The translations under genes and the position numbers were made by a program. 64,000 nt of DNA from positions 6,076,001 through 6,140,000 of the forward strand of contig CM102289.1 of assembly GCA_046563655.1 (NCBI GenBank). Direction: 5' to 3'. Below, in pieces: positions 40,245-63,474 of this stretch. This DNA comes from Yuukianura sp. NJ FZ-2021. Taxonomy: Eukaryota. The number at the start of each line of letters is the position of its first letter. Positions within the stretch are counted from its first letter, which is position 1. The notes under the pieces are model-generated. The model had not been told where the DNA came from and searched no databases. It saw only the letters and a program-made list of their open reading frames with translations.

Positions 40245-42002
40245 TTCACTTTCACACTGAAGACTGAACTTTATCCTCCTAGTGATGCGGAAAAAGTACT
40301 GAGAGAAAGTTTTGCCCAAAACACGCCCTTTTGCTTCTTCTAGTTTTTCATTTGGGGCGATTATACCAATTGTCAAAACGTCAATTATTTTCAGACGTGT
40401 CCCACCCAAATGCAAAATTTAGAAATTAATCTAAAGACAAGTTCAGTACGGAGTACTAAAACTGAATTTCATTAGTGTCAAAAAAGAGTAAAGGGGAAGG
40501 ATTTTACAACACCCTAGTGGATATTTGACGACCATTTTCTCATTCTAATAGGTAATTCGATTTTCTTTTCATTTCCGTGACTTGTACTACTATTTCATTG
40601 ATGAAATGAGAGTAGAATGGCAGGCGGAACCCTAAATTGACCATAACGTCAAAACTGATCAAAAGTAAGCAATTATTCTAATTGCCATTTTTCACAACTA
40701 CAATGATTCAAGTTAACTGTTATTGTACTTGACAAAAAAAAATGAGCAGATTAATTTCTCAAGTCTTTTTCTTTTACAAAACTAATCCGGAATCTAAACG
40801 CAATTCTCAATGTTAAATTGTTCCAGGCCACCGAGAATTTTGTCCAATTTTCATAATCCGACTCCAAGTCTTGTTTAATCACTTAATATTGTTACTAATG
40901 TTAACGTAGTATGCCAATACTCTTCGTGTCCTGGCTGCAAGAAATCAAACAAGCCATGATTTCCTTCCAGAAATTGTGCCCTTGTGCAAACACGTTTTCG
41001 TTGATGCATGCATGTTTTTTTTTTTGCATGAAAGCCAAAATTCGATTGCTAGGTATTTAAAAAATAACTGCTGTGTATAGGCGGCTACATAACTACTCAA
41101 CTAATTAAGCTAAAAGATGCGTTTAGTACAGAGTAATAAAGTTATATCCCATTAGTGTCAAAACTGAACAAAAGCGGATGGATTTTGCAACAAATCGAAT
41201 TAGTTCGATTTTATTTTCATTTTCATTGTTTCTTAAATGAGGATTTGAAAATAATCAGGAAACTATAGCTAGATCGATCATAGTTTCGAAACTTATCAAA
41301 AATTCGAGAAAACAATTCCTATAATTGCAATTTCCCTGAGCTCGAATTCCGAAGGCTAATTTTTAAGCATGTTAGCCATGAATTATTAGCTAAGAAACAA
41401 ATAGAACAAAAAAAGCCAAGCGCGTCGTTAGTCCTAAAATAAAAAAACAAAGTTTAATTGAAGAAAAACAAGGTTCAATTGCATTGCAGGAGAAATCAGT
41501 TTTTTCCTGCAATTAACTTTTTCTGCAATAAACGTTTCGCCAATTAAAAAAAGTTCTCGTGCATTGTTTTAATTGGTGAAAAATGCTGTTTTAATGCGCA
41601 AAACATTTTTTAACACGCGAAAATTTAAAATAATTTAGCCACCATAATGCCTCCATAACAAACCGGTTTTTATTGACTTGAATGTTCGTTCCAAGGAATT
41701 TAATATAAATGCATCCGAATTGGAACTTTATTCTCGTTAAAGCAACAGCGTTTAATTCATTTTGCCAACATACTCATGAATTTGACTCTCAGAATACTGA
41801 CTTCGAGAATCAGACTTTCGTTGTAATTTGATTTTCGTTGTAATTCGCCTCGGACAAATTCAACTTTTGTAGTAATTTGTTCGATGAAATGGCGTGGGCC
41901 CTATTTTAAAAACAACGAACATCGAATTTATTCGTTAACGCTGAAAAAAGTGGTATTTAATTAAGTATATGTTTGGTTTGTCTGCTTTTTTTAGAAACCA
42001 TA

Positions 42003-43115
42003 ATGAAACTGGCACAGGTCACGCAGAAGACACTGGAGTTTAATTTTGGAACATATTGTGATCCTGTATCTGGAGAGGCAGTTCATGTCACCGGAGAATT
42101 TCCAGTAATTACATCTCACCTGAAAAGACATTTGTATCTGAAGATTTGAAATCCAGTTTCCAGTCGGAAGTTCCTACAAATTTGGGTAGAACAATTTTTT
42201 GAAACGACTTTAAATCCCAAATATGTTGAAGAAATTGTCAATACGGCTACAATATTTGTAGCCATCACGTATCCAATTCAACCCATCGACAGCCCAAAAT
42301 TCAATTTATGTCTTCAGTGGTTCGTGTTCCTATGGATCATGGATGACATTCTGGAGTCATGTGTCAGTGACAAAATCATTTCTGAAGAAGTGTATACCAA
42401 CGGTGCGAAATATCTGCTAGGAATACTCGCCAGATCTACAACAAGCTTTGACAAACAAAAAGTAGAAAATTTTCCTTCGTTTCATGGTTTGTTCAACGCT
42501 TTCTCCGACATTGTCAAAAACCTTGAAATATTTGACACTACCGACGGAACCAAATCGAAACAATTTTACTCGTTTCTAAACGAGTATTTTGAAACTCTTT
42601 CTCGCCGGAATAAAATAGATGGCGCTCTGTCAGAAGAAACGTTTCGGAAATGGCGAGGAACCTCATCGTTTTTTATGGGAAGTGTAGAATTCTACTGGAT
42701 CTTGGAAAGTGAAAATGGGCTACCTTCTGAAATTTTGGAGTCACCCACATTGATTTCCATTTGGTCTGTTCTTGATTCTATGGCGGCATGTACAAATGAT
42801 TTGCTGGGTATCGTCACTGACTTCCTGGGTGTCAACAAACAAGCTAAAAATTACGAAATTGACAATTTAGTTGTTTTCAAAGTTGTTCAAAAAGGGATTC
42901 GATTTTGTGATGCCGTTACTCAAGTTTGTAATTTAATTAAGAACGATGTTTCTGAATATTTGAAGTTGCGGGACAACGTTTTGGAAGAATTTTCAAATTG
43001 TTCAGAACTTGCAAGGTACATTGACCTGATTGAGGCAGTCATACATGGGCACTGCCGATCCTACATGTACATACCACGATATCAAGCTATTGGTTATGTA
43101 AAACTTGTAGACTAA
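42003..43115 (+). pseudogene. Microbial-type class I terpene synthase, copy 1 (intronless; in-frame TGA at 42147-42149 inside a short frameshifted patch, so either a pseudogene or an assembly error)
   Basis: ATG at 42003 is in frame with ORF 42324-43115. Motifs WIMDDILE (DDxxE), CTNDLLGIVTD (NSE-like) and C-terminal RY. Collinear with copy 2 (DPVSGE..GEFPVITS vs DPISGE..GEFPVITS). Confidence 0.75.
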
Positions 43116-43748
43116 TTTTGAATTTGGGAAACTAAGGAAGATTATTACTCAATGATTTAAATGTACGAGTTATAAAATTAATTAAATTTTTGAATTATTA
43201 CGGAATGCTTTTGATAGGATTTACTGGTACTAATGTAAACTTCGGTGGCTTCGGTTAAAGCCGAACTGAAATGTTGCAAGGACACAACCAATATGCAAAA
43301 ATTGTTTAAAAAAATCATTTTGTTGCTGAATGTTGTTTCTTCGTATCCTCGGTTTTGACGACACTTCCTTAATAAAATTCTGTAAATTTTTACTCTCCTT
43401 CCAGTAATTCTTTTGCCATTTACATACCTGTCTGTATTCCTGTTTTTATTCAAAACTGCTTTTAACAATTTAGTAAGGCAATGCATCGGAATTGAGAATT
43501 CATTCTCACTAAAAAGCAACAACTTTTCATTCATTTTACCAACTACCAAGCAATTATTGCTACACGCGAGAAAAAAAACATAACGTTTTTATGGTATTTA
43601 AGTCTTTATTAAGCTTAGGCCAATAGTTAGTACAACAATTGACATCTTCGCTTTTAAATCAAAACCAACATAATAGATACAATAGGAGAATTTAGATTCA
43701 ATTGAAAGTTTTTTAAATACGAAGTTTGTGTTCAATTTTTTTAGAAGT

Positions 43749-44888
43749 ATGGTTACAAAACTTAAAAAACTAAAAGTGCATTACGGAAGTTCAATGCGTA
43801 CTATCTCAAATACCACACAAGGAAGAACGCAGTTTGATTTTGACGAAATTCGTGATCCCATATCTGGTGAATTTATTCAAGTAAAAGGAGAGTTTCCTGT
43901 AATTACATCACGGTTTCAAAAAGGCTTCGCGTCTGAAAAACTGGAACATGTCCAAAAAGATCTCAGAATTTGGCTTCAACAATTTTATGATACCAGTTCA
44001 AATCCAAATTTTTTTGAAGGTATTGTTCAAACAGCTACGCAGTTTATAGCTATCACATATCCACTTCAACCAATTGGCAGCCCCAAGTACAATGTGGCTA
44101 TGAAATTTGTTGCCTTCCTCTGGATCATCGACGACACTCTGGAGTCATGCGTCACAAACAAAACTATTTCGGAACAAATTTTAGTCAACGCTGCGACCTA
44201 TCTGCTAGGAGTACTTTCAAAAACAGTAACAACTTTTGATCCACAAAAAGTAGAAGCCTTCCCGCATTTTCAAGGCCTGTTCAATTCACTTTTGAATTTC
44301 GTTCACATTTTTGAAGAAATGGATCCCACCTACGAACAGAAATCAAAACGATTTTACTCGTTCGTCGAAGACTACTTTCAAACATTTCAATTTTGCTTCA
44401 AGCATAATATGGATGGCACTATGTCAGAAGAAGCGTTTCGGTTATGGCGCAGAATTATTGCGTTTTATGGCGGAGGTTTGGAGTTGTACTGGATCCTGGA
44501 AAGTGACAATGGCCTTCCATCTAAAATTTTGAAATCTCCCGCTTTTACACAAATTTGGCCTCTCCTTGACTCCATTGGGGCTTGTACCAATGACTTACTG
44601 GGCATGAAAAAAGATTTTGGAAATAATGAATTTGATAGTTTACTTGTATTCAAAGTGGTTCAAAAAAGAATTCCGTTTTATGATGCCGTTGCACAAATGT
44701 GTGAAATAATGAAAGACGACATGACGAAATACTTGAAGTGGCGGGAAAACGTTTTGCAAATTTTTTCAAACTGTACGGAGCTGGTCAGGTACATAGACCT
44801 AATAGAAGCTGCTATGCATGGGCACTGCCGTATGTACATGCACATGAAACGATATAATGTTGTTGGTTCTGTAAAAATAGTAGACTAG
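43749..44888 (+). CDS. Microbial-type class I terpene synthase (terpene cyclase), copy 2, intronless
   Basis: About 380-aa single-exon ORF with WIIDDTLE (DDxxE), WRR (candidate pyrophosphate-sensor Arg), CTNDLLGMKKD (NSE-like) and KRY near the C-terminus. Motif spacing is typical of bacterial/fungal alpha-domain-only terpene cyclases. Start ATG is 43749 or 43794. Confidence 0.85.
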   Translation: MVTKLKKLKVHYGSSMRTISNTTQGRTQFDFDEIRDPISGEFIQVKGEFPVITSRFQKGFASEKLEHVQKDLRIWLQQFYDTSSNPNFFEGIVQTATQFIAITYPLQPIGSPKYNVAMKFVAFLWIIDDTLESCVTNKTISEQILVNAATYLLGVLSKTVTTFDPQKVEAFPHFQGLFNSLLNFVHIFEEMDPTYEQKSKRFYSFVEDYFQTFQFCFKHNMDGTMSEEAFRLWRRIIAFYGGGLELYWILESDNGLPSKILKSPAFTQIWPLLDSIGACTNDLLGMKKDFGNNEFDSLLVFKVVQKRIPFYDAVAQMCEIMKDDMTKYLKWRENVLQIFSNCTELVRYIDLIEAAMHGHCRMYMHMKRYNVVGSVKIVD

Positions 44889-46083
44889 AGATACTTTATA
44901 TTTTATAAATCAATATAGTACGCACTTTGTCCAATTCAAATTTCAATAATTTTCGTTAATGGTTAATGATTTATTCTTTAGTTAAGCAAAACTTTTTCAA
45001 TTAAATAACAACGAATTATTTCTCTAATTAAATACAATTTATTCGATTTTTTCTCCTTTCAAAATCTCTTCCTGTTCTTATCACTCAAGGAAAAGTTTTG
45101 GTGACTTTGTCATTGCGGAGTGAACTAAAGCTCAATCCGTTGCACACACGCAGTGTAACTTGCACCGTGCTTTCCTTAACCAGCCGATAACAATCCTGTG
45201 GTGGTGACAAGATTAGAAAATTTCCATTATGATGTCATTGGCGCCGCCTACTACATTCATTCAGCGGATACTAAACTAAAAAGAGTGGTGGTTACATTTC
45301 TAGGGTACACGGGTACACCGGTTACAAGAGTTTCGTTTGTCATTCTGTTAGGACGGCGCCGGATTGACTAGTTTATAATATAGACGCGATCAATGTTGTT
45401 AGAAATTCTACAACAGGTTAGGTTGATCCTTCGAAAATCCTTGGATGCGATAGTGACAATATCTGAGATACTTTGTATGGATAAAGGTATTCAAGGGTAA
45501 TGAAATTTATGGCGTAACTTTGTTTTGAAAGTTTTTCAATAAAACAATAGCGACTGATTACTCTATCTGTCAAGCCATCATTTATTTTTTTTCAAAATTC
45601 TTTGCAAAAGTTGAAGTTGCATGAGATCATTTTGGGAAACCTTGCAATTCTATTGGCGTTCTTCATTAATCTGATCGCATTAACGAGGGCAGGGTATTTA
45701 ATTGTTTGCAACTATTAAATTGCTAATTTTGCTTTGGTTTATGCAATTCATTTCACAGATTTTTCCGGTTCGATACGCGTTCTAATATGCTTGTCGTCTA
45801 AAGCTCAAACCGTTTAATTGTTGAAGTAAGAAGCATAATTAATTACCAACAGCCTATGAACTGGCCTTAGTTTGGCGATTTGATTTTAGATAACGATTAT
45901 TTGGGTAAAGTCTAATCAAGGGCTTTATTTTATCAGTATTGACAAATTCTAACACAATTTGAGCTAGGAGCTGAATCTGCATTTAAAGTCTTTATTAAAT
46001 TTCCAATTCAATTCGAGTTTCCAATTTTAAGTCAAAGCCTTCAATTCTCGCTGCACAAGTAAAGTTACTCTCAGCAAAGGAAA

Positions 46084-48249
46084 ATGATTTTTGAGCTTTG
46101 TGGAATTTTTGTTTTGGCGTACTTGGCTTGGTTCTACTTTGAAAATTATGGAAATGTGGACAAAAGACAACCACCAGGTTAGTGTATTAGTGTAATTATT
46201 AATTACTTTGTAATTAAGAATTGGCCAAAGACTGTTTTACCAAAACATTTTATAATTTTAGGACCAATACGAATTCCACCATTTGGAAATTTAATACAAA
46301 TTGGACTCACGGATCGCGTAACACATATGGCTCTGCAAAAAATGGCCAAACATTATGGCGATGTAATGAGCATCAAAATGGGACTCCTCGAGACCGGTAT
46401 AGCTTCAGATTTTTACATACTTAAAAAAATTATTGATTAATAGTATTTGGTTGCAATTAACTAAACTTATTCTTTTTAATTAGTTATACTTTCTTCCTAC
46501 GAAGCAGTTAAGCAAGTGTTGAGTAAAGAAGAAGCCGCTGGGCGGGACTGTACAGGATTTATTCTGGACAGAAATCTACATAATCCCAGAAATGGCAAGT
46601 TCTAGCGTTGTAGTTTAGTTGAATTAATATGAACGTTGTAACAAAATATTATAAAAAGCTAATCACTTCTTGTCTTAGGTCTAGTATTTTCTGATGGACT
46701 TGTTAATGACACTACCCGAAAATTTTGTTCCGATACGCTTAGAATGTATGGCTACCGAAACCGCCAAACAGTTCAAAATATGTTATTGGATGAACTGACG
46801 GACTTTGTACATTTGATTGAAGACGAAGCCAAGAGCAACGCAGAACATCGCGTACATTTCGGCTCGTACTACTTTAATCCCGCCTTCTTGAACATCATGA
46901 GCACCTTGGTTATGGGAAAACGCTTTAAATATAGTGACCCAAAGTTTCAAAAACTGTTAAAGCATGAAGACGAATTTATGAGTTCTGGGCTTTTGGGTTC
47001 TGGACTCATCACGGCATACCCATTTCTCAGACACATTTTCCCAAAACTTCTTAGTTACGATGTTCAGATGAGTGGAATGAAAGGATTTCATGAAGTTGCA
47101 ACGGTAAAACTGACATTATTACAATTTCGACGCTTGATTTTCAAATTCTCATGCAGAAAAAAATTTTGTTGATGCGGTTTTAGGAAATTTTACAAGAGAA
47201 GAAGAAAGGAAAGTACGACACGAATCCAACTTGTTTTACCGACGACTTTCTACAAAAGATGGACGTAGCGAGTACATTAAAACCGGAAGCAATATTTACA
47301 GGTTTCTAATGCATTTCTTATAATTGATATATATATATGTTGTTACTATACATTTTTTCGTGCTTTCTATTCCAGAGGATCAATTCAAAGTTTTATTTTG
47401 TGACCTCATTCAACCTGGAACAGATACGTCAAACAACGTTTTCAATTTCATTCTGCTGCACCTCACTTCTAATCAAGAGATTCAACAGAAAGTTTACGAC
47501 GAAATCATGAATGTTGTTGGTCCTTATCGAATTGCCAATCTCGATGATAAGGCATCGTACGTTTTTAATTGGAAATTTTAAAAACAAAGGTTTAAACCTA
47601 ACCGCGCGCGAAATTTAAACTTAAATTCGTGAATTACAGTATGCCGTATACAACTGCTGTTACTCTAGAAGGGCTCCGTTGGAATCGAGTAGTTGTTTTA
47701 GGTGCACCACGGAAGGTCTTGAAAGATTTTACCTACAAGAATTTCAAGATTAAGAAGGCAAGAAAACTGACTTTTTATTTCATTATTTTGAATAGAGTTT
47801 TTAAACAATTTTCATTATGAGACTATAATTTTTTTGAAATTTCAGGGCACGGTGCTTCTGTATAATATGCAGAGCGTGTTTTTTGACAAAGAGTTTTGGG
47901 GAGATCCAGAAGTGTTTCGGCCAGAACGATTTTTAGATGAAGAGGGAAAATTTATTACTAAAAAAGTCGATTGTGCTCAATTAGCATTTGGAGCAGGTTG
48001 AAAACATTTACACTTTTGTCTAATGTTGTTTTTTTTTATTAATACCAACTGTATTTTCTGTTAGGAAAACGAAGTTGTTTTGGTGAAACCATGGGCCGTG
48101 ACAGTTTGTTCATATTCACTACGTATCTGATTCAGAAATTCAAATTCACACTCCCGCCAGGACCGAAACCAAATTTGCAACCCAAAGTTTGTTTGAATTT
48201 GTGTCCATATCCTTACGACGCCATTGTCACGCCCAGGAAACCCTCGTGA
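46084..48249 (+). CDS. Cytochrome P450 A (clan 2-like, CYP15/303/305-type), multi-exon
   Basis: N-terminal membrane anchor + PPGP, I-helix QPGTDTS, K-helix EGLR, WGDPEVFRPERF, heme motif FGAGKRSCFG. Stop at 48247-48249. Confidence 0.93.
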
Positions 48250-48783
48250 GTTGGATTTTGTAGATTTTACGAAAATATGATTGTAATAAAACTAAACAAA
48301 ATAAACTCAAATAGAATTTTGTTCTTATCAAACTCTACCACACAATTGAATTGAGTTGAGGTCAACAATGGTTTCATACCCGACTCGAATTGTAGCGAAT
48401 TTTTTTGACAGGGATCTATTTCTTCGTAAAACTCGGTCCGTTTTTATAAGCGAAAGTCAGCTTATATTTATTTTACGATTGACAATACAACCGATTCACG
48501 ATTTAATATGCATCACTATACACAGCGTATTCACTATCTTACATAATTCAAAAATTCAAAACGCTACCGCCAGGAGCATGAGCCGACGCTGCAGCCAAAA
48601 ATCGCGATGAATTTTTGTGTGCATCTCTACGACGCTATTGTGATTGTGACCTGACATTGTACATGTAATGTAAGTTTTTTCTGCTTCAAAGCTTTTATAC
48701 ATAAAAATGAGCTAAAATTCGGAAAGCTGCAGCAGATATTACTGTAAGTAGTGTATGTGATAATTCAAGTATAACGTTTTGAA

Positions 48784-50071
48784 TTAACAGTAATTATTAT
48801 TGTTAAACGTTTCAGATCTTATCACGTCAACCTTGAAAATGGATTTTTGTAAACGGTTTTTCACTTCCGTCGGAATAAGGGCTCTACAAAACACACAAAC
48901 AAAAGTGATTAAAAACATTTTAAAATGAGAAAAGTAAAAGTATTATTGTAAACTAAATTTACTGGAAAAGCGGAAGTGCTGCTGCCATCTTGGGAATAAA
49001 TAAATGCTCCACATTTTGGCGAATGCCTTTAACGATTTCCGCTCCTGCAAATTCCGGTGTCACGACAGGCAAACTTGATGCAAATCTGTATCAAGTTTAA
49101 ACTCAAATTTTTAGTGTTTCAAAAAATTTGATTTTTGCAAGTTTTCACCATTGGGCATGCGCAGTAGACTTACTTTGACTTCAGAGTCACTCCGTTCATA
49201 ACTCTCGTGCTGACCAAGCATGGATAAACAGTTGTAAAACGGATGTTAGATGTGTCAAATGGACTGGCTTCCAACTCTTGTTTAAGTGCTTCAATGAAAC
49301 CGTAATTAGCATGTTTACAAGCCGTGTAAGTTGTAAGTTCTCTGGCGGGAAAGAATGAAGCAATGGATGCAACAGTCACGATGTGACCATGGTTCTTTTC
49401 TACCATTCCCGTCAAAAATTCACGCAGAATTTGAAAATGAGAGAGGACGTTGACTCTAAGCATTTTCTCCTCTACTTCCGACCTCATTTGAAGAAAGTTT
49501 CCGTTGGGAATAATTCCGGCATTGTTCACTACCATCGTCACTTCCCCTACTTCCTTCCGAACCTAGTTTTTGAAAAAAGAAATCACAAAAAATGCTAAGT
49601 TTTTCAAAATTTTGATTTTTTTTGTACTTTCGAGGATGCTTCTTTAATAGCCGCCATATCCGAAATATCCACTGTGTAATTGTAAGCCTTCGTTCCGGAG
49701 TTACATAATTCAGTGACTAATGTTGAATTTGCTTCTGAATCAATATCCCAGCAAACAAGTTTTGCTCCAAGATTTCCCAAATTTAGTGCAATTTGTCTTC
49801 CAATCCCATTTCCAGCTCCTGTTATCTGTAAATTCAAAATATTAAATTTTCTTTGATTTTTTTAAAATTTAAAGGTGTCAAATTCTAGAAAGTGAAATAC
49901 ACTTACAAGAATTACTTCTCCTCTGAGGCATTTCAGTTCCGGAGGAATGAAAAATTGAAAAATCTTTTTTACAATTACAAATGTCCAAATTAAATTCACT
50001 ATTGTGATTTCCCACAAGTATTCACATCCTTGTTTCAAATTTTTAAGAACAACCACGCTTAGGTCATCCAT
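48784..50071 (-). CDS. Short-chain dehydrogenase/reductase (SDR16C / 17-beta-HSD11/13 / retinol dehydrogenase-like)
   Basis: N-terminal hydrophobic anchor, TGAGNGIG Rossmann motif, NNAG, GHIVTVAS, YTACK (YxxxK). Five exons to TAA at 48786-48784. Confidence 0.92.
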
Positions 50072-50879
50072 TTTGAGTTTAATTCAAGAATTAACTTTAA
50101 AGTTTAGGGTACAATTAGAACGCACTCACAAATTAAAATTTGAAACAACAAGCAAATCTTTATTGAAGCTAAACTTCAGAATGAAAGTTAAGGAATGAAA
50201 CAGAACTTTACAAATGTAGTCTTACTTTTTCTACTGAAAAAAAAAGACAATGCAAGAATGCAACACAGATGAAGGAAAAAACACTGTTATTTACATCCGT
50301 TGATCGTACACATTCTCATGCTTTTAGAATTATCATTAAAACTTAACGCTGCGTCTAATTAGCCAAAGAGGGAAAATGAGACACATTTGAAAAAAAAAAT
50401 ATATGCAAAAAAAATTCCACTCATGCGGTAAAACTAATACAAAAGCCATGAATTATTTGTTATTTTCAAAGTTTTCTTGGAAAGTGACTTGGGAAACCTT
50501 CATTTACTAAAATAGTGGTTTTCCGTAAAAATCCCTATGTAGATAATACAAGACAGACGCCAAGTGTGTTTTTGTGGGGGCAGTTTTGTTGACCAACCAG
50601 TTTGTAGCTTGATGAGGAGGATTTTTTTCAGCATAATAAATACAAAATCAAGCCCTAACATAACACAACCCTATATTAAGTAAATAAATTTTGACCTTGT
50701 AATGTCAGCGGCTTTTTTGATTCTGGGAAGGTTAATTTCTGATCAGCTTGTTAAACTTCTTCGTAAGTTCAGTTTAGGATCCGCAACAACTTCCAGTTTA
50801 TTAATTGCTTTCAAGAAGATTTAACCTCAAAAGTGAACAAAACGTCAATTCATCCAGTACAAAAAATTTAAAAAGTAAA

Positions 50880-53080
50880 ATGATTGTGGAACTGGCATTG
50901 CTGTTAGTTGTGGCGTATTTGATTTGGTTTTATGTTGAGAATTTCTTCGATACGGACGGGGCGCCTCCGGGTAATAACTTTGTTATTAATTTAAAAACAA
51001 ACATAACTAATAACTCTGATGTTATACATTTCATCGGTAACTTGAATTTTGTTTTTAAAAACAAGGGCCCATACGCATTCCTCCATTTGGAAACTTGATT
51101 CAAATTGGATTTGCACATAACAAGAGTCATATTGCTTTTGCGAATTTGTCAAAAAAGTATGGAGATGTCATGAGTATTAAAGTGGGTTTGATGGAAGCAG
51201 GTAGAATTGTTTATCAGAAATATATTTAACTAATATAATTTTAATTACTTTTCATTTTTCAAAAGTTATTTTATCTTCATACGAAGCTGTGCGAAATGTT
51301 TTCACCAAAGATGAAACTTGTGCCCGTCTCATTGCATCATTCGTTTGGGAGAGAAATTTAAGACAAAAGATAGGCAAGTAACAATAAAATTATGTTAGAA
51401 TGCTCGTAATTTTGAACTGAAAAAAATTTTTCTTTTAGGCTTGGTATTCTCTGAAGGACAATTTCACACAGATACTCGAAAATATTGCAGAGATGCTTTA
51501 AAATGCTATGGGTTTGGAGATCGTATTGCAATGCAGACCATGTTGCTAGAAGAATTGAACACCGAATTTATAAAGATTATAGACAATGAAGCCAAATCCA
51601 GCCCAGAGTCCACAGTTCATTTTGACCACTTGTTTTTTCAAAAATGCTTTATGAACATAATGGTAACTTTACTGACTGGCAAAAGATGGAGCTACACTGA
51701 TGAGAACTTCCAGGCTCTACTGCATCATAACGAAACAGTTATCAACAATGGAGCTTTAGGAACAGGCCTGCTAATTGCATTCCCTTTTCTAAGATACGTT
51801 TTCCCAGAGGCTTTAGGATACAACGCTATGATGACAGGATTTGCAGGGTTGCGTGATGTTGCTCTGGTAGTACAAACAATTTATCAAAAAAAAATATATT
51901 GATTTGCAAGCTTTCCCTGGGAAATTATGAAAAAGCCTTTCTTGAAATTTAGGGCGTGTTGGATGAAAGAGAAAAGCATCGTCTGAAGAACAGTCCAGAG
52001 TGTTTCACGGATAATTTTTTGGAAGAAAAAGACAAAGAAAAAGCGACTGGCAAAGGAATATTCACAGGTATTAAAAAACTAAGAAAAAAATTGTTAAGAA
52101 AAAACAATACTTTTAAAATCTTTTGGTTGCTTGGTTTAGAAGATCATTTTGTCGTTACCTTCTGCGACTTCGTCCATGCTGGCGGTGAAACTACAAGCAC
52201 CGTGGTTAACTTCATCATTCTTCTACTTACTGCATATCCGGAAGTGCAAGAAAAAGTTTACGAGGAAATTCTGGAAGTCATAGGACCTTCAGTGTCTCCG
52301 GCTATTGAAAACAGACATTTGTAACAAACGCCAAAAGTAATTTATTACTTTGATGAAGTTTACTTCTATCATATTCGTTTTTCACCATAGAATGCCTTAT
52401 ACTCAAGCAGTTATTCTGGAAGGACTTCGTTGGAACAGAGTCGTCGTAATTGGACCTCCAAGGAAAGCTACAAGCGACTTCTGCTATAAAAACTACAAAA
52501 TTAAAAAAGTAAGCAGCAAAAAAAGGAATTCAGAAGAACAGATTTTTTTAATTAGAAAAACAGATATTAGATATCGTAAAAGTAAACCTTTTTGTTACGT
52601 AAGATTCCCTTCTTAACCAAGTTTCAATTTTTCATTACTTTTTCTAAACAGGGGACTACACTGATGTTTAATCTCCAACCAATTTTTTTCAACAAAGAAT
52701 TTTGGGGAGACCCAGAGGTGTTTCGTCCTGAACGCTTTCTTGACTCGGATGGAAATGTTGACACAAAGAAAGCGGAAATTATTCAAATTGGATTTGGTGC
52801 AGGTGAAAATGATACACAATTGCTAAAAATTTAAAAAAAAATGGCTTTCATCCCACTCAAATCGTTTTTCAATCAATTTTTGTTTCCAGGAAAGCGTAAT
52901 TGTTTCGGTGAAGTTTTTGCTCGTGACAGCCTCTTCATTTTCGTGACGACTCTCATTCAAAGATTTAAATTTTCCCTCTCGCCTAAAAATCCGAAGCCAA
53001 GTTTGGAACCTATAGTAACTGCTACTCTGGCTCCAGAACCTTATGATGCGATTGTTACACCGCGACTGCAATTCCAATGA
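50880..53080 (+). CDS. Cytochrome P450 B (clan 2-like), paralog of A and C
   Basis: MIVELALLLVV anchor, PPGP, I-helix HAGGETT, EGLR, PERF, FGAGKRNCFG. Same intron positions as CYP A and C. Confidence 0.93.
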
Positions 53081-53794
53081 ATACATGAAATACTCAAATA
53101 GATGTGATATGGAAAGCAAAAACAGTTGCAAACGCCGTAACGAAGTAGTGAAACGGACAGTAAGCATATGAGTGTGAGAGCGACAATAATTTGACTCCAG
53201 AAAAACGGACGGACAGACGAACAGGCAAACACGAGCAAAAGCAGTGACAAAAACTGTTAAGCATCATTCTATTCGCTACCTAATAATTAAATCTTGCCTC
53301 AAATTTCTATTTTAATGTAAATCATTGTTTATAAACCAAATCCGAATTAGGAACAGCGACAGCGGCAGCGGCTCTATATTTTGAAATGTCTAGTACAAAG
53401 TGTTTTTTTTTCTTGGATTTACGATGGGTCGCTTCAAAGTCCAGAACAACACTGTAAATGGTCTGTATAGTTTTGTATTTTCGCGAGTCACAGTCAATGT
53501 TATGGCATGCGCATGACGCTTTTTTTATCCCAATGCAAAAGCAAACACGCACATCAACTAGACACAATCTGGAGAAAATTGACCTTGTCGTGTCAGCGGT
53601 TTATTTTTTTTGTTTTTGGTTGTTCCGTTGCTGATTTAATTTACCAAACTTCACACTCTCTCAGTTGAGTTTATGATATTAAAGAAGTTGCAGCTAGGTC
53701 CGTTTTGATTTCCAGAAGACCCAGTTTCTAGGCCTTGTTTTCAAACGTAACTGAATAAAAGTTTTGACAATCAACCTTAGAAATAGCAAATATA

Positions 53795-55983
53795 ATGTTT
53801 TTGGAACTATCATCACTGTTAGTTGTATTGTACCTGTTATGGTTTTATTTTGAAAACTTTGCCAAAAGGAATAAGGCACCTCCTGGTAATTTATTCATTT
53901 TTAATGTATAAAGGAAATTCAAACTTTCTAACTACTTGTAACATTAACTTTGCTGTTTGTAAATTAGTGTTGCTTTTTGTATGCAACAGGGCCAAAATGT
54001 ATCCCGCCATTTGGAAATCTGCTTCAAATTGGATTTGAACATAAAACGGCTCATATTGGCCTTGACAATCTGGCCAAAAAATATGGAGATGCCATGAGCA
54101 TTAAAATGGGGTTGATGGAAACTGGTAAATTCTTACTTAACAACACAACCAGAGTTGATATTCAATTGGTTAATTTTTATTTTTCTCCTTAAAGTTATTC
54201 TTTCGTCATACGAAGCTGTACGAAATGTTTACACCAAAGACGAAGCTTGTGGTCGTCTCTGCTCTGCATTTATTTGGGAAAGGAATCTCAAGCAAAATAT
54301 TGGCAAGTGAAATATGGATCTGCTGGCCTTTAGCTTTACAGATTTTTGTGTCGTATTTTTAAATGAGCAAATTTTTGAAATTTCTGAACCAAATTTATAA
54401 AAATTTTAGGCTTAGGCTTTGCCGAAGGACCCTCCCAGGCAGAGACTCGAAAATACTGTCGAGAAGTTTTAAAACGCTATGGGTTTGGAGATCGTATAGC
54501 CATGCAGACTATGTTGCTGGAAGAGTTAAACTCAGAATTCATAAAACATGTCGAAAATGAAGCTAAATCGAGCCCTGAGTCCATAATTCACATAGAACCT
54601 AACTTTTTCCAAAAATGCTTTTTGAACATTATGGTTACATTACTCACCAGCAAACGGTGGAGATACACTGATGAAAACTTTCAGGCTCTACTTCATTCTA
54701 ACGAAATACTTACCAACAATGCGGCTATGGGAACGGGTATAATGATTGCGTACCCTTTCCTATTACATGTTTTCCCGGAAGCGTTGGGATACAACGTTGT
54801 AATGTCAGGATTAGCCGGGATTCAAAAAGTTGCTCTGGTAATGTTCAAAATTTAGAAACTATTCTTCAACATGAGGTCATAATTCCTGATGAATTTTTAG
54901 AGCGTTTTGAACGAAAGAAGAAACTTGCGTCGCAAAAACAGTCCAGAATGTTTTACGGACAGTTTCTTGGACGAAATGGACAAAGAAAAAGAGACAGGCA
55001 CAAAAGTGTTTACAGGTTTGCTAACAAAAACAAATATTTAAAAGTTCAAAAGTGAATTATTTTGTTCTTGCTTGTTTTTTGCTATCAGAAGATCATTATG
55101 TAGTTCTTTTCTGCGACTTCATCCAAGCCGGTGCAGATACAACAAGCAACGTCGTAAACTTTACAATTCTTCAGCTTACAGCAAATCCAGATGTACAGGA
55201 AAAAGTTTACCAAGAAATTCTGGAAGTCATTGGACCGTCAGGGTTTCCAGCTATAGAAAATAGACAATCGTAATAATGACCAAAACTACAGATTTAAAAA
55301 AACAACAACATACAAACAACTTAACTATAGTTGTTGTTATTCATTTTAGAATGCCTTATACTCAAGCCGTTATTTTGGAAGCGCTTCGATGGAATCGAGT
55401 CGTCGTACTGGGACCTCCAAGGAAAGCCACAAGCGACTTTTGGTATAAAAACTACAAAATCAAAAAGGTAAAGCATCCAAAAGTAAACTTTTTCATGAAA
55501 GTAATCTTCTAACATAATTTTATCAAACAAACTTTAGAAATTTTTGCTTTTGGTTATTTTTTAAATTTTCCAAACAGGGAACTGTACTGATGTTTAACCT
55601 TCACAGCATCTTTTTCAACAAAGAATTTTGGGGAGACCCAGACGTGTTTCGTCCTGAACGTTTTCTCGATTCAAATGGAAATTTGGACACGAAGAAAGCG
55701 GAAATTATTCAAATTGGATTTGGAGCCGGTAAAACTAACAAACAAGCTAACTTTTAAAAATGAATTTATAACGTCAATTTTCTAACTAAATGTAGGAAAA
55801 CGCAATTGTTTTGGTGAAGTTTTTGCTCGTGACAGCCTCTTTATTTTTGTGACGACTCTTATCCAAAAATTCAAATTTTCCCTCTCCCCTAAACTTCCGA
55901 AACCAAGTATGGAACCCGTGGTAGGCGTTACTCTTGCTGCACCTCCTTATGATGCGATTGTCACAACACGTACACAATTGTAA
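53795..55983 (+). CDS. Cytochrome P450 C (clan 2-like), close paralog of B
   Basis: MFLELSSLLVVLYLLWFYFENF anchor, I-helix QAGADTT, EALR, PERF, FGAGKRNCFG. Stop at 55981-55983. Confidence 0.93.
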
Positions 55984-56062
55984 TTAACTACAAATTGCCT
56001 TTAAAATTATACAACAAAAGCAATAAATAAGTTTTCGCTTAAAAATTTATTCAATTTTTGAA

Positions 56063-57386
56063 TCATTGTTTATAAACGGAGTCCAGTTGTTTTTTCATAT
56101 AGTCGCGAACAGTGACAGCGTCTGTAGATTTTGAAATTTCTCCAACGTAGTTCGGTAGATGAGACAAAAGCGGTGCAATCAAAACTTCGTCATCCGGGAT
56201 AATAAAATACGCCAAGGATTGACGATCCAAGTGGTTCTTAACTTCGTGCTCTGACACTCCAACACGATGAATCTATTGTGAAGCATGAATTGACACATTT
56301 ATTAGTTTCATAAAGTTGAATTCAACTAGATTTTTCAATCTTTAATTTTTGAAATGAAACTGGATGTACCGTTGCTGGATATCTGCCACCAGACCAGTAG
56401 TTCAGCAGATTTCCCGTATTGACCAGAACTGGAGGTGTAATTTTCAAACAGAGTTTAGTTTAGTTTTAGCCTTAGTTGAAAATGCTTCAAAACAGTTTCT
56501 CACCTGCACCCGGAATGTATTTAGCAGCAATCCAAGTTCCTTCTTTGGTTAAAACCTTCAGTAAAGTAAGTTGAACTTTATAAATGTTACTGTAATTAAG
56601 TTTTAACATAAAATCGTTGAATTTCAAACAACCTCCAAACCACCTCCTTCGTCTTGCCACAAAAGCGTAAGAAGTCCAAAGTCCGCATGCGTAGAACACC
56701 GTTCCATACCTGGTTTGAGGCTAGGAACGTATGGGTAGTAGATGCTTTTGAGTCTTGTTAAATTTGAAACAGACGCGTCACTGAGCCCAAGGCATCTTTT
56801 GGCAAAATAGGATTCGTCATCTAATTTTAGCGACTTTGCAAAAACTTTTAAAATCCGCTTAATCAATGGTTCCGACTCTTCAGCCAATTTGAACATTGAA
56901 GTCACAACTGGCGAAACATCGGGATTCAACTTTTCCAAAATTCCATCAAAAGGATATGGTGGCATGTTGAAACTTTCACGGTACTTATTTCCAATCTGAA
57001 ATCTGCGAATTTACAACAATTTAGCACAAACTAACATGATTTTTTCTTGTTTTTATGATACTGACGCTTCATTTCTCCCGTCGTAGCCAAACGTCTTGCG
57101 CTCATCGTCAATAGAGTTGCACCCATTTTTAGTTTCAAGGTCCAACTCAAAAAATTTTCTGCTTTCGCTAAAAACTTTTTCTACCTGAAATTAAAATTGG
57201 TAAAAAATAGCTAAACTTTAATTTCGTAATACATTTGACTAACAAATAAATTTGTAACGTTACGGTTTCCTTCGAAATGCCATGCCCAGTGAGGTACAAA
57301 AATCCAACTTGTGAAAGTGCTTTGTCAACTTCAGTTGACACAGTTTCCCAATCCAAAGAAATATCAACTATCGGAATAGAAGTCAT
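56063..57386 (-). CDS. 2-oxoglutarate/Fe(II)-dependent dioxygenase (DIOX_N + 2OG-FeII_Oxy; IPNS/flavonol-synthase-like superfamily)
   Basis: N-terminal IPIVDIS...VGFLYLTGHGI, HADFGLLTLL (HxD), distal HRV, and RQS (RxS 2OG-binding). Multi-exon. Confidence 0.92.
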
Positions 57387-57939
57387 TTTCTACAACTTCA
57401 AGTTCGAACTAAAACTTAATATTGGAATCGGTGATTTACCAATTTATTTGAAATCATTCCCTAAGTTCCTGTAGAGTTGTTAAGTTATCTTAATGACGTA
57501 GTTAAACCTACGTTAATCAAGTAAATAATGAAGTAAGCTATTAGGAAGCAATTGAAACTAAGGAAAATCCATACAAAGCCAAATGGCCATTAGGAACAAA
57601 GAAAATATGAGTTATGTAAAGAGACGTTGGCTACTTGTAAACAGCAAAACAGAATGAATAATAACAACTACTACATTAGATTAATGTTTTAACATTAATT
57701 CATACAATTGATGAATATTTATTAAAATATTAGTTATTAACGCCAGACAATTATTCAGCAACCCTTTTTGCATATTAGCCACATGTCTGTTTTACACCAT
57801 GATTTAAATCCACGTTTCATCCACAACCGCCATCGAATCGCTATATTATGATTAAGCCTATTGTTAGTTTAGTACTATTTGCCAAGCATTGAGCGTTGGG
57901 CGATTCGTATTAGGTTACAATATTCAAGAGTTACAAGAC

Positions 57940-60900
57940 ATGGACAAAAACGAAAACTTAAGTTTTAGGTAAATTTCATACCACAATAAGAACACTGTTA
58001 AAATTCATGTTCTAGATTTTAACAATCTTGACTTGGAACAGATGGATTTTTAGAATCATCGAGAAAGGAATTTCGGAGACGCTAAGGATGTCAGATTTTT
58101 CAAAATTGGATACAGATGAATCGGATTACAGTAGTGGAACTGGACAAAGTTCATATTTGAAAAAAAATTTAAGAGAGCATTGGGAAAAACGTAAAAACCA
58201 TCGTTACGGGTTAATGTCCGCAATCTTCCATACGTTCAAATTCCCAATACTCTTCTGCCTTGTTGTTCGGATCCTTGATAGATGTTTCTTGATGTGAGCT
58301 TTACAAAACTTATAAAAACATGATGAATTCAAGAAATTATAAAATACTTTTGTTATTTACATTTCATAGGGCGGTAGAACGGCTTTTGCTCGGAGAAGTT
58401 ATTCAAGCAGTCCGCATTTGCAAAACAGGGAGTTGCTCAAATGCCTGGATTATAATTGGCTTCGTGATGGTGACTACTCTACGCTGTGTTCTACATAGAG
58501 TATTTTATTTTATCAACAAAGCACTCTGTAAGAAAGTGCGAATCGCAGTAACCTCTTTGTTTTACAGCAAGGTAAGAAAAAAAATCTAAACCCTGAATTT
58601 TTTAAACTTTGTTTAATATCAGTCATTTGTTTGTTAGCTGCTGCGTCTTAGTCTTAACTCTCTTCAAAAAATACGAACAGGAGACTTGGTTTCACTTGTG
58701 TGTTCTGGTGGAATGGCAATTGAAATGTCGTTCTTCATTCCCTCTATTATAACTGGTCCGCTACAAATTTTAGCTCAGTTTTACGTGCTCTGGACGAACT
58801 TTCAAGGAGCGTCTGGAAGTGGACTTGGAGTTTTAATCCTACTTGGAGTTTGGCAAAGTTTGAATGCAAAAATTTTCCAAACTGGTGTTTTCAATATTGA
58901 AAATAATTTCAAAAATTTCTTTGATCGAAGGTTACTTAGGAAAGCTGGGAACATACTACAGAACGAAAATCGCAATTGCTTCGGCAAGTCGATTAAGATT
59001 GGTTACACAAATTCTAAGTGGAATCAAAACAATAAAGCTGCGGACATTGGAAAATTTCTTTTACAATAAAGTTGCTACAGAACGAAGGTGAGTTTCTTTG
59101 CTCAGCATGTTTGAAAAATTTGAATGAAAACGTTCAAACAGTTTTGTATTTTTAGAAAAGGATGTATTGAACTTGGGAATTCAAATATTTTAGAAGCACT
59201 ACGTTACATAACGGCCTCATGTAGTCCGATCCTAGCCATGATCATTACCGTTTCTTGCTACGTGTTGTTTGGAAATGAAAAGTCTCCAGAACAAGTCTGT
59301 TTAAATTCCAAAACGAAAGGTCAAATTTCATTTTAAGAACACTGAATTTTTAAAAAAACTTATGCACTTTTAGATAGTCGTGGCTTCTACAATTTTCTAC
59401 CACCTTCGAGCAACTATTTTCGTGGATATACCAACCGGACTGAAACAACTTGGAAGTTTGAAAAACGTAGTGTGCCGGTTCCAAGTAAGTGTTAAAAATA
59501 AGCTTCAAATTTTCGAATAATACCCGAAAAAAATGAAAGTCAATTTTCAGGAAATCTTGCTTTTGGAAGAAGTAAATTCTCGTGTTCAAACTGATTTTGC
59601 GAAAGGCAACATTTCAATTACGAATTTAGTTTTGAAGTCGGATTGTAACAAACTGACTTTGGAAAATAGTATAATCAGAAACGGAAACTTGGATGTTGCA
59701 TATGGAGAATTTTTACAAATTGTCGGCAAAACTGGAAGTGGAAAGGTTGGTATGAAACTGATTTGTTAAACATCAGTGGCGTACACGCAGTAAATTTTAT
59801 GCTTTCAGTTTTTCTGGCCGAAAATTTTATGTTTCTTTAATCTTTTGTAGACTGCTTTGCTAAAAGCCATTTTGGGAGAACTGGCTTTGGACAGTGGTGA
59901 AATCAAAGTTGGTGGTAAAATTTCATATGCTTCGCAGGATCCTTGGATTTTTCCGGGAACAATTCGGCACAACATAACTTTCTATTCAAAATTTGATACT
60001 GCGAGATACAGGAAGATTATCGAAGCATGCGCACTCGTTGACGATCTAAACGCAATGCAGTTTGGTGACCTTACTGTCGTAGCTGAAGGTGGAGGTGACC
60101 TCAGCGGAGGTCAAAAGTCAAGAATTGCTTTAGCAAGGTAAAATGATGAAACGAATTCGAAAACAAAAGACATGATTTGAATTAAGTTAAAACTAAATTC
60201 TACGCTAAATTCTAGAGCCATCTACGCAGATGTGGAAATTTACATTCTGGATGACGTTTTGAGCAACATAGATGCTCATGTTGGAGCTCATGTTTTTAAC
60301 CACTGCATCAACGCCTTCCTTAAAGATAAAACTGTTATTCTCTGTTCTGGAAACAAAGTTTCTAGTGAACACCATAATGGAACGTTTGATAAGTTTGAAA
60401 AACAAATTCAACGTTTGAATGGAAATGCGAACAATTTAGCTCCAATTTCTGGAAGGACTGATTATCAACGAAGAATTCTCAAAAACTCCTACCTCGGAAT
60501 TGGTAAAAATGAAATTGAAAATTTGGAAGCTGAGAAAAAATCAAGTTCCAGCAGCACCGTTGAAGTATATTGGCAGTATTTAGCGATTGGATCTGGATAT
60601 AAACACTGTTTTCTTTACTGTGTTTTTACTATTTGCTTTATGACACTCTACCACCAAATGGAGTTTTGGTTACAACAAAGGTAACAAAATAAATAAAAGT
60701 CGTTGAAATTTTGAATTTTAAAAATGTTTTTTTGTTTCAGTTTCAAAAATCTCTCAACCGAACTGAACGTTAACTATGATCACATCGGATTTGCACTCGG
60801 AGTCATTTGCTTAATATTAGTAGCTGCGGGACAGCAAATATTTTTGCTAAAAATTATTAAAAATGGACGTGAACATTTTCATAACAAAATGCTTTCTTCT

Positions 60901-62894
60901 GTCCTTGCCGCTCCGCTTACGTATTTCACTAAAACGCCTCGAGGTAAAAAAAACGACCTGGTAAAATTGAGTTAAAGACAGGATTTTTTATCACTTTTTT
61001 TTTGAAAATTTACTTGTTTAGGTGAAATTTTGGAACAATTCAGTTCGAACTTGGCAGTGATTGATGAAATTTTTGCATTCAAGCTTCATGATGCCATTCA
61101 TGTAAGACAAACTTCAAATTTGTGTTTCATGCAAATTATTTTTAGTAAAATGTTTTTCTAGATTTTTTTGATGTACTTGGCTGGTTACTCAATTTTGGTC
61201 TACAAAGTCGGTGCAACTGCAACCGCTCCTCTTGTAGGGTTGTTCACCGTTGGTTTTTACGTGCAAAAGTTCAACATCAAAATATGTCAACAGTTGACAG
61301 TTTTGTCACAGAAAGGTTAGTGTAAGCCGCAAAAAATAAAAAATTATTATATTTATGTTGTTATACTTTTACAGCAAAAATTCCAATTGTATCGGGAATA
61401 ACATCTTCGATCAATGGAATAACAACAATAAGGGCACTGCGGAAATGTAAAGAAGTGGAACAACATTATGACCATTGCCTTGACACTAGGTTTTGGATTG
61501 ACCTTGCCCACTTGGGAGTCGATGACCTCGCGACTTTGGTCATTGACCTTACAACGATTGGACTTTTAAACGCTGCAGTGATTGCTGCCGTATTTTTTCC
61601 AACATATGGAATTGAGGCGGCACTTTCACCATTGTTGTCGTTTGGAGCTACAGTCGGATTTGCATTTTCACTCGGCGTTGTACTCGTGTCAAATGGAAAA
61701 TGCGCTGAAGGCATTCTGAACGTCCACCAAGTTCAACCTGAATCTTATTGTAACTTCAAAGAATATTTTTACCTCACTTGTTAAAAAAATGCATTTTAAA
61801 AAAAAATACGTTTGTATTTGCATTATAACCTTACAGCGTGTGTTAAGCAACAAGAAACAGACCTTACTCAGTGGCCGTGGAAAGGAAAAATTGTGTTTTC
61901 AGACGTTTCAGCCGAATATGAACCTGGGATTTCTGTTTTAAAAAATTTGAACTTTACTATACAACCTGGAGAAACTGTAAAACTCTTTTTATGCATTCAT
62001 AACTTCGTTTTTTTTATCAGTTCAAGCTTGCACTTTTTGTTTATGATAACAATCTAGGTTGCGATTATTGGGAAAACGGGATGCGGAAAATCAACTCTAA
62101 CCTCAACTCTTGTCCGATTAATTGAAATTTGCACTGGAGAAATCCTGATTGATGGTATCAACATTTGTGACGTTCCTTTGAAGCAATTGCGGCAGAAAGT
62201 GTTCGTTGTACCACAAGACCCTTTCGTTTTCCATGGAAGTTTGAGAATTTTCCTGGATCCAGTTGGAGAGTTCAGTGACGATGAAATCTGGGAGGCCCTT
62301 CACACAGTACAATTGGACAATATGTTTTCAACATTTGAAAATGGACTTCAAACTGAGGTTTCTGCAGTATTTTGTTAATTTCGAAAATGCAATATTTTGC
62401 AATAAATCCAAGAATTTCAACATCGATTTTTTTCAGATTGGTGAAATGCAAAGCGTGTTAAGTTCTGGACAGTTGCAACTCTTGAATTTGGCGAAAGCCG
62501 TTCTAGTAAAGCCGAGAATTTTGGTTTTGGACGAGTCAATGGCTTATATGGATGAAAAGTAAGGTTTTTTTTTTTCAAGTTTTAAAAATTGGTTTTTTCA
62601 AAAAACATTGATTTCAAACAGTACCAGTCAAATCGTCTCAAGGAACATTAGGAGTGTTCTGCCTAATACAACAATTGTGACAGTTTTGCATAGACTCACT
62701 TTCATTCATACCTTTGACAAGGTTATGATTATGGACAATGGGGAAGTTACCGTAAGTTGTATTTCTTTAAATTATGATTTATATTGATATGGTAGTTAAA
62801 TTTTTGCATGTTTAAGGATTATGGTTCTCCAGAATCTATCGCCAGTTTGTCATTGCCTGACGACAATTCAAAAGACGTCATAGACGTCAAGTAA
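57940..62894 (+). CDS. ABC transporter subfamily C (MRP4-like, TMD-NBD-TMD-NBD), multi-exon
   Basis: NBD1: GKTGSGKT, SYASQDPWIF, LSGGQKSRIALAR, IYILDD. NBD2: WPWKGKIVF, GKTGCGKS, VPQDP, LSSGQ, ILVLDE, HRL. Stop at 62892-62894. Confidence 0.9.
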
Positions 62895-63156
62895 AAGGAA
62901 CCGTAGATGTTTTTACAGTAATCAGTAACTCAAAAATACCAGAAAATTGTTGAGCTCGAATTTGATAAACAACTTTGCGGTTAATTTCGGCAACTTTTTT
63001 CCTACATTCAAATCAAATTGTTTGAGGTTTTCCTTGAGAATATAGAACTGCGAGTAGCGGATTTCTTTGATAAATGGAATAAACTAGTTTTAATTACTAA
63101 AATTTGAAGAAATAATTAAAGTCATTCAGTGATTTTTCTTTTTTTCAATTTGAAAA

Positions 63157-63474
63157 ATGAATTTCAAAATACTAATTCTGTTAGCATTGGTAATGGTATT
63201 TGCCTACACGAACGTCGCTGGTAAGATCTAATTCATAACTTAAAAACAATAATTAAATTAAGCGAGCTATTAAATTGCATTGAGTTTTAAAAATCTAAAA
63301 GGTTCCTTCATTCTTTCTTTTATTTTTGAAATTGAAAAAAATCCAGAGGCCCAAACATACAGTCGTCTTTGCAGTTCCGGATGCCGCCGAAAGTCAGACC
63401 AAATTTCAAAGTGTTGCAAAGCACATCAGTGGCAAGGCGGATGGTGCCAAGGATCAGCTGCCTTCTGCATTTAA
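63157..63474 (+). CDS. Secreted 6-Cys diapausin-like (antifungal-type) peptide
   Basis: Exon 1, 63157-63220, encodes the signal peptide MNFKILILLALVMVFAYTNVA. Intron 63221-63346. Exon 2 gives EAQTYSRLCSSGCRRKSDQISKCCKAHQWQGGWCQGSAAFCI: C-x3-C-x9-CC-xAH...C-x6-C, the diapausin spacing. Confidence 0.78.

Follow-up and report, generated by a model that had tools for sequence, protein, structure and literature searches.

The question raised by this locus is whether eight neighbouring genes in a springtail genome work together as a biosynthetic gene cluster for a terpenoid, or merely lie side by side. The DNA analysed is a stretch of 64,000 nucleotides of the Yuukianura sp. NJ FZ-2021 assembly GCA_046563655.1 (contig CM102289.1, positions 6,076,001 to 6,140,000), hereafter called the window. 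From the ATG of a first terpene synthase (TPS) copy at 42003 to the stop codon of an ABC transporter at 62894 (20.9 kb), eight consecutive genes of five enzyme and transporter families are found, and a Pfam scan of open reading frames (ORFs) recognised no other gene among them. Their order is two terpene-synthase-like ORFs (TPS1 and TPS2), a cytochrome P450, a short-chain dehydrogenase (SDR) on the other strand, two further P450s, a 2-oxoglutarate/Fe(II) dioxygenase (2OGD) of the DIOX_N/2OG-FeII_Oxy type on the other strand, and the ABC transporter. An earlier reading of the letters without database searches (the sequence-only reading) had proposed these eight genes over about 21 kb without a housekeeping gene, and Pfam matches and gene models bear out every one of them in its place. 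The reading that we favour, and hold to be plausible, is a lineage-specific gene cluster of specialised metabolism in a springtail-type arthropod. Argued from adjacency, a true pathway cluster, in which TPS2 and at least one neighbour serve one pathway, has in our judgement slightly less than an even chance. It is favoured because the run of five families is unbroken and sharply bounded and its genes are intact and constrained, and also because the P450s and the SDR have endoplasmic reticulum (ER)-type anchors, the presence of a DIOX_N dioxygenase is unusual and oxidised terpenoids occur in springtails.

The Pfam scan was run on stop-to-stop ORFs. Two sets were covered. One consisted of ORFs of 45 amino acids (aa) or more that overlap 44900-64000 (163 of 167, the four others being minus-strand ORFs over exons of the transporter), the other of ORFs of 62 aa or more in 1-42100 (79 of 157). 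The remaining matches in 44900-64000 are five single-ORF ones, every one below its Pfam cut-off. Gene models were built from coordinates with GT-AG or GC-AG junctions, and all six give uninterrupted proteins (Table 1). Seven of the eight genes have intact frames and catalytic motifs, the exception being TPS1.

The candidate for the scaffold-forming step is TPS2. The ORF at 43686-44888 matches Terpene_syn_C_2 with E=6e-7 (29.8 bits, above the cut-off of 23.7). In an alignment of 14 sequences, D113 and D114 of the first Asp-rich motif, DDTLE, are invariant (14/14), and so are N266 and D267 of the second metal motif, NDLLGMKKD, which has Gly for Ser/Thr and Asp for Glu; the Gly form is present in most family members and the canonical S...E is kept in some. 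In the RY pair, R353 is invariant and Y354 occurs in at least 90% of the aligned sequences. The AlphaFold model (pLDDT 90.5, pTM 0.89), together with Foldseek, gives a single alpha-domain with the all-alpha class I terpenoid cyclase fold. When the model was compared with PDB, 271 matches were obtained at E<=0.001, and the top ranks among the matches listed are class I cyclases: bacterial sesquiterpene and diterpene cyclases come first, fungal class I cyclases are also matched, and the target-normalised TM-scores reach 0.85. A bacterial-type class I cyclase fold that keeps the family-invariant residues of the metal-binding motifs is thus credible for TPS2, and cyclisation itself is predicted. 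The sequence-only reading had described the cyclases as microbial-type class I enzymes, with which Pfam, the AlphaFold model and Foldseek agree; both copies are intronless.

TPS2 was compared exhaustively by HMMER with 1.84 billion representative proteins, which gave 47 relatives at E<=1e-3; 21 of them reach E<=1e-10 and 4 reach E<=1e-30, and the closest is only 32% identical. Twenty clusters of relatives were looked up, and an organism name is attached to 4 of them, in each case Folsomia candida; one of these named relatives is annotated as germacrene D synthase. A word-based search with TPS2 returned nothing at E<=1e-3, which according to the search tool is weak evidence. TPS2 is best described as a candidate member of the collembolan terpene synthase family.

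Two structural observations were made beside this. In the TPS2 model, an N-terminal beta-hairpin (residues 9-37, about 43818-43904) and a C-terminal strand (residues 360-363, about 44871-44882) lie beside the helical cyclase core, and an N-terminal G-x-x-P-R-I-like stretch and a C-terminal V-K-L-like end are conserved across the family. Also, one metagenome-derived relative of TPS2 (P0028, 755 aa) has two domains, Terpene_syn_C_2 (E=1e-12) and, after it in the chain, the cis-prenyltransferase Prenyltransf/UPPS (E=1.3e-16); it is a synthase of the same family as the cyclases of the window, fused to an enzyme that possibly supplies its substrate.

The first copy, TPS1, shares 56% identity with TPS2 in an alignment of 314 residues. 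Its Terpene_syn_C_2 match on 42150-43115 (E=1.8e-4, 21.7 bits) is under the cut-off of 23.7, and its TGA separates the conserved N-terminal part from the catalytic domain, both of which are in the same frame. Rescue by an intron was considered, and the candidate GT...AG pairs around the TGA, checked by eye, fail to restore the frame. In public sequencing runs with Logan contigs (the DNA runs), an allele skipping 288 bases within TPS1 (42786->43075) is found in X1, X2 and X3, and a form skipping 41769->43323, by which all of TPS1 is removed, in X1, X2 and X5. From the in-frame stop and these deletion and absence alleles, TPS1 is probably a decaying, recently disabled duplicate. Between the two copies dN is 0.28 and dS is 1.0, an indication that TPS1 was under constraint for most of its history; the values of this pair and of the P450 pair CYP-B and CYP-C (below) indicate long purifying selection. 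The "2 terpene cyclases" of the sequence-only reading are thus two tandem ORFs, and the count was overstated, with one copy interrupted and structurally polymorphic.

Microbial-type genes in an animal contig raise the question of an assembly artefact or contamination, namely that cyclase genes of a microbe were mis-joined to arthropod sequence. The cyclases are indeed intronless and microbial-type, and the DNA runs bridging them come from one sample, perhaps the assembly's own source. Against these two points, one contig spans 41615-44913 and others tile the rest of the region, and separate Logan contigs bridge TPS1 and TPS2, CYP-A and the SDR, CYP-B and CYP-C, and CYP-C through the 2OGD into the transporter. 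A run from a second study and a second organism (X5) also contains pieces of TPS2 and five neighbouring genes (CYP-A, SDR, CYP-B, 2OGD and the transporter) at about 93-96% identity, with no contig linking the genes. The window is AT-rich eukaryotic DNA (GC 0.34-0.46 per 2-kb windows), and the GC values of the cyclases and their neighbours are alike at 0.34-0.36; this uniformity and the short introns of the neighbours argue against contamination. Moreover, the sole organism-named relatives of TPS2 among the 20 clusters looked up are nuclear genes of F. candida. We regard an artefact as very improbable.

The three P450s, CYP-A, CYP-B and CYP-C, have nine exons each, with eight intron positions common to all three. 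Their models contain the heme-binding Cys loop (FxxGxRxCxG), the ExxR motif and PERF, and the Pfam p450 exon matches span profile positions 3-460. For junction 7 of CYP-B the second candidate was chosen, being consistent with the paralogs. CYP-B and CYP-C are 75% identical (dN/dS 0.19), and CYP-A is 53-54% identical to both. Intron 3 is of the GC-AG kind in the three genes, and its donor, GCAAGT, occupies an equivalent position in each (46595, 51374 and 54303 in CYP-A, CYP-B and CYP-C), so that the non-canonical donor is older than the duplications. Since they are tandem paralogs of one array with identical exon structure, the P450s count as one recruitment; the "3 P450" of the sequence-only reading are three intact genes, and as three separate members of a cluster they were overstated. 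The best PDB sequence matches are CYP2B6 and CYP2C8, which are weak (E 0.05-0.09, exon 4 query). A query with exons 5-6 of CYP-B found no word-sharing relative at E<=1e-3 among 5.8 billion proteins (longer proteins), which is weak evidence. Some DNA contigs contain joints between paralogous P450 positions, from 53000 back to 50455, from 55234 back to 52389 and from 46307 to 51142 (regions 50399-53000 and 46307-55345). Such joints may reflect additional or hybrid P450 copies in part of the haplotypes, or else chimeras that arose in the assembly of the short contigs.

The SDR matches adh_short on two exons (E=2.5e-25 and 4.7e-12), and its model has the motifs TGAGNGIG (TGxxxGxG), NNAG and Y-T-A-C-K (YxxxK). 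The best PDB sequence matches are 17beta-HSD13 (HSD17B13) and HSD11 (HSD17B11), with E from 2e-19 to 2e-18; judged by these, the predicted enzyme is 17beta-HSD11/13-like (SDR16C), of the kind acting on lipid alcohols. For the 2OGD, the DIOX_N match has 32.5 bits against a cut-off of 27.3 and the 2OG-FeII_Oxy exon match is weak, and the spliced model contains H-A-D (HxD), the distal His in I-H-R-V, and R-Q-S (RxS). Both enzymes of the sequence-only reading are accordingly present as intact models with catalytic motifs. The PDB sequence matches of the 2OGD are weak and distant (thymine dioxygenase at E=3e-4, ethylene-forming enzyme and plant 2-ODDs), and a word-based search with its exon 3 against longer proteins found no close relative at E<=1e-3, again weak evidence. 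In the Protein Atlas, the nearest clusters to exon 3 are eukaryotic, with Ascomycota commonest, and partly DIOX_N/2OG-FeII_Oxy, a lead that we did not use as evidence of origin. To our knowledge, 2OGDs of the DIOX_N type are an uncommon family in animals. Because of its type and the lack of a close relative in the word-based search, the 2OGD may be no ordinary host enzyme.

The transporter is divergent to the 2OGD at about 0.55 kb. All of its 18 introns are GT-AG and 44-105 bases long, and its gene model and Pfam matches give two pairs of a transmembrane domain (TMD) and a nucleotide-binding domain (NBD) in the order TMD-NBD-TMD-NBD; each NBD contains Walker A, the signature and Walker B. The NBD1 exon has its best PDB match in ABCC4/MRP4 (E=4.9e-33). 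The H-loop (switch histidine) segment is missing from NBD1: the alignment with ABCC5 ends just before it, the same open exon continues into the linker and leaves no space for it, and none lies downstream. For lack of this segment the pump is perhaps atypical or impaired and its activity uncertain, which qualifies the MRP-type exporter of the sequence-only reading, whereas its identity as a short ABCC full transporter stands. The same reading had spoken of intron-containing host enzymes; by best PDB matches this suits the CYP2-like P450s, the 17beta-HSD11/13-like SDR and the ABCC4-like transporter, and is doubtful for the 2OGD.

These assignments bear on a second alternative, an endogenous lipid or hormone locus in which the CYP2-like P450s, the SDR and the MRP4-like pump process farnesoid, retinoid or ecdysteroid-type signals independently of the cyclase. 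The best matches of the SDR to the lipid-droplet 17beta-HSD13 and to HSD11, the weak best matches of the P450s to family 2 enzymes and the closeness of NBD1 to ABCC4 would all suit such a locus, and the arthropod CYP2 clan does include hormone-pathway enzymes. Hormone-pathway P450s are, however, normally conserved and single-copy, and here there are three lineage-specific paralogs, with the exon 5-6 query finding no word-sharing relative and the 2OGD being likewise without a close one. We consider a hormone locus improbable.

From Table 1, the edges of the run can be seen to lie at genes of other kinds, gustatory-receptor-like ORFs on the left and a diapausin-like ORF directly downstream of the transporter on the right. 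The first 41 kb of the window hold ordinary animal genes, namely a receptor with ANF-receptor and kinase domains, a PDZ protein, Nse4, a KH protein, a 3CxxC zinc-ribbon protein and Spaetzle. The arthropod host supposed by the sequence-only reading is supported by Spaetzle, the two 7tm_7 genes and the diapausin-like ORF. No prenyl-diphosphate synthase was seen among the 79 of 157 ORFs scanned in 1-42100 and in the ORF scan of 44900-64000, as that reading had also stated, nor can a class II cyclase, a prenyltransferase or a pathway regulator be made out in the window. Two long open frames, at 25470-27470 (+) and 35834-37417 (-), encode 667 and 528 aa without a Pfam match at E<=0.001. At 41500-41650, the word depth in the DNA runs is about 10 times that of the rest of the stretch (3412 compared with about 300 in X1) and many contigs end there; a repeated element appears to lie at this left edge.

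Table 1. Genes of the locus, followed by the features at its two edges.
Feature	Coordinates	Strand	Exons and product	Evidence and remarks
TPS1, terpene-synthase-like gene, interrupted	42003..43118	+	intronless	in-frame TGA at 42147-42149; sub-cut-off Pfam match
TPS2, intact class I terpene synthase	43749..44891 (start Met 43749 or Met 43794)	+	intronless	Pfam, fold, motifs
CYP-A, cytochrome P450	46084..48249	+	9 exons, 505 aa	Pfam p450 exons 46183-48246; splice model
SDR, classical short-chain dehydrogenase	48784..50071	-	5 exons, 324 aa	Pfam adh_short exons 49861-49173; hydrophobic N-terminus
CYP-B, cytochrome P450	50880..53080	+	9 exons, 505 aa	Pfam p450 exons 51059-53077; divergent to SDR, about 0.8 kb apart
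CYP-C, cytochrome P450	53795..55983	+	9 exons, 504 aa	Pfam p450 exons 53968-55980; splice model
2OG/Fe(II) dioxygenase, DIOX_N type	56063..57386	-	6 exons, 310 aa	Pfam exons 57389-56325; convergent with CYP-C, 80-base gap
ABCC/MRP4-like full transporter, short (no TMD0)	57940..62894	+	19 exons, 1231 aa	Pfam ABC_membrane and ABC_tran exons 58864-62559
Two 7tm_7 gustatory-receptor-like ORFs	38545..40418	-		Pfam 7tm_7 E=2.4e-8 and 7e-8; non-metabolic, left cluster edge
Diapausin-like antimicrobial-peptide ORF	63274..63471	+		Pfam Antimicrobial_6 E=3.3e-5, 24.3 bits against a cut-off of 25; right cluster edge

The alternative that has to be weighed most carefully is coincidence, that is, an old tandem TPS pair beside a stretch of xenobiotic metabolism (CYP array, SDR, 2OGD and ABCC) that deals with dietary or soil toxins and shares no substrate with the cyclase. 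We give this explanation a considerable probability, only a little below that of a true pathway cluster. If families were placed independently, an uninterrupted run of five distinct metabolic ones would be highly unlikely, but detoxification genes are not so placed. Arthropod detoxification arrays are usually of a single family, and a DIOX_N-type 2OGD would be an unusual enzyme for animal detoxification; here, four further families follow the cyclase without one unrelated gene and within sharp boundaries. The compactness is on the other hand not special to this stretch, as the non-metabolic first 41 kb of the window are equally gene-dense.

Several results weigh against a pathway cluster, and some of them speak directly for coincidence. 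One of the two cyclases is broken, and the pump lacks the H-loop segment in NBD1. The P450s are a tandem paralog array with the copy-number and hybrid joints that are typical of detoxification arrays. A shared pathway is backed by adjacency alone. Conservation of the neighbourhood, which the sequence-only reading had proposed to check, was looked for in metagenome contigs scanned with the TPS alignment, and at none of the 8 related TPS loci (1.0-6.2 kb) was a CYP, SDR, 2OGD or ABC neighbour found by tblastn; with flanks of only 0.2-4.9 kb this test has low power and is given little weight. The list for these loci comprised 120 ORFs no shorter than 55 aa; those over the TPS match were excluded, and 1 of the 66 flank ORFs scanned belongs to a Pfam family. 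It is a SAM-dependent methyltransferase (Methyltransf_25/11, CMAS-like) at L001:542-1576 (-), divergent to the TPS relative at L001:3099-4166 and about 1.5 kb from it, and the sole recognisable neighbour across the 8 loci. Promoter words of 7 to 10 bases shared among six upstream or divergent intergenic regions were not above 200 first-order shuffles; for example, at k=7 there were 3 words in at least 5 regions, compared with 1.7 on average and at most 7 in the shuffles. Finally, the genome of F. candida has expanded P450, ABC-transporter and other stress families, the P450s and ABC transporters being stress-responsive (PMC5490193), which raises the chance of coincidental neighbours. P450 neighbours, synteny and clusters did not come up in term searches of the main texts of PMC11665903 and PMC13638087.

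If the locus is a pathway cluster, as we favour, TPS2 would ionise a host-made prenyl diphosphate (C15-C25) and cyclise it to a hydrocarbon or alcohol scaffold. Hydroxylation of this scaffold would then be the task of at least one of the three ER-anchored P450s. The membrane-anchored 17beta-HSD11/13-like SDR would turn an alcohol into a carbonyl, and the soluble 2OGD would carry out a further hydroxylation, a desaturation or an oxidative cleavage. Export from the cell, or transfer to a store, of the product or a conjugate of it would fall to the MRP4-like ABCC. In this scheme we infer every substrate-product link, the co-expression and the order of the steps. As a minimum, TPS2 and at least one adjoining oxidoreductase would be expected to share a pathway.

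In momilactone-type diterpenoid clusters of plants and in the terpenoid clusters of fungi, a scaffold synthase is combined with P450, SDR, 2OGD and transporter genes in a few tens of kb, an architecture like that of the springtail locus. One difference is that the P450s, SDR and ABCC are here animal-like by best PDB matches and have short spliceosomal introns; the class II cyclase, prenyltransferase and regulator not seen in the window are another. For the transporter, a likeness may be seen to CpMRP, an arthropod ABCC pump of leaf-beetle defensive glands, which reportedly moves precursors of defence compounds and sequesters plant-derived glucosides and is not known to us to be part of a biosynthetic cluster; transport by the springtail ABCC is only predicted.

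The closest comparison in an animal is with octocorals, where a class I cyclase is clustered with P450s and SDRs (PMC12685057). In both cases, an animal nuclear genome holds a class I cyclase, of a distinct clade whose origin is called unresolved, co-located with P450s and short-chain dehydrogenases. The octocoral clusters belong to another phylum and to an unrelated cyclase lineage, and the DIOX_N 2OGD and the ABCC are present in the springtail locus only. Furthermore, the octocoral clusters have been validated by biochemistry and show conservation between species (PMC12685057), whereas the springtail cluster is a prediction from sequence. Within springtails, the genome of F. candida has 36 antiSMASH regions, two of them labelled terpene, and a beta-lactam (ACVS/IPNS) cluster (PMC5490193), so it is likewise a springtail genome with secondary-metabolite clusters that include foreign-type genes. 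The composition of its terpene regions is absent from the main text of that paper, and a term search of two of its supplementary files found no terpene, antiSMASH or P450.

A paper of 2024 (PMC11665903, PNAS) reported that springtails, mites and fungus gnats have microbial-type terpene synthases, with three active springtail enzymes, and four active springtail synthases are described in PMC13638087 (Angew Chem 2026), which counts 277 synthase genes in 21 of 26 springtail genomes, 45% of them (125/277) intronless. TPS2 resembles these collembolan synthases in protein family, in the single alpha-domain class I fold and in its motifs, and TPS genes that lack introns or are duplicated in tandem, as seen at this locus, have both been described in arthropods. 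The two papers treat synthases alone, and TPS2 is at most 32% identical to any library protein. As the origin of the springtail clade is called unresolved in PMC13638087, the "horizontally derived" cyclases of the sequence-only reading were overstated in that word; microbial-type is what stands. The same paper lists oxidised springtail terpenoids, namely sclareol, drimanediol and the nor-diterpenoid ketone curvisetone, for which tailoring enzymes of the kinds found here would be needed.

A more far-reaching proposal is that the locus is the first terpenoid cluster of an arthropod, assembled independently of the octocoral and plant ones around an anciently acquired microbial-type cyclase. Such a cluster would have recruited a second enzyme of non-animal type (the DIOX_N 2OGD), host P450s, an SDR and a dedicated ABCC, and its product would be an oxidised, possibly nor-, terpenoid serving as a springtail defence compound or pheromone. 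Taken as a whole, this proposal is rather unlikely, and we put it forward tentatively.

Clusters of non-homologous metabolic genes are rare in animals, and the terpenoid ones found in the literature searched are those of octocorals. Animal terpenoid clusters and springtail synthases are thus each known, and an arthropod terpenoid cluster of such composition was not met in our literature searches. If the locus is only a detoxification neighbourhood, it would be a caution against inferring pathway clusters from adjacency where the P450 and ABC families are large. Springtails make unusual terpenoids, and their study has so far been one of synthases and not of tailoring enzymes. If the locus is a true working cluster, all candidate tailoring and export genes of one springtail terpenoid would be named at once, cluster formation around a foreign-type cyclase would have occurred independently in arthropods, and there would be a direct way to test the assembly of clusters in animal genomes.

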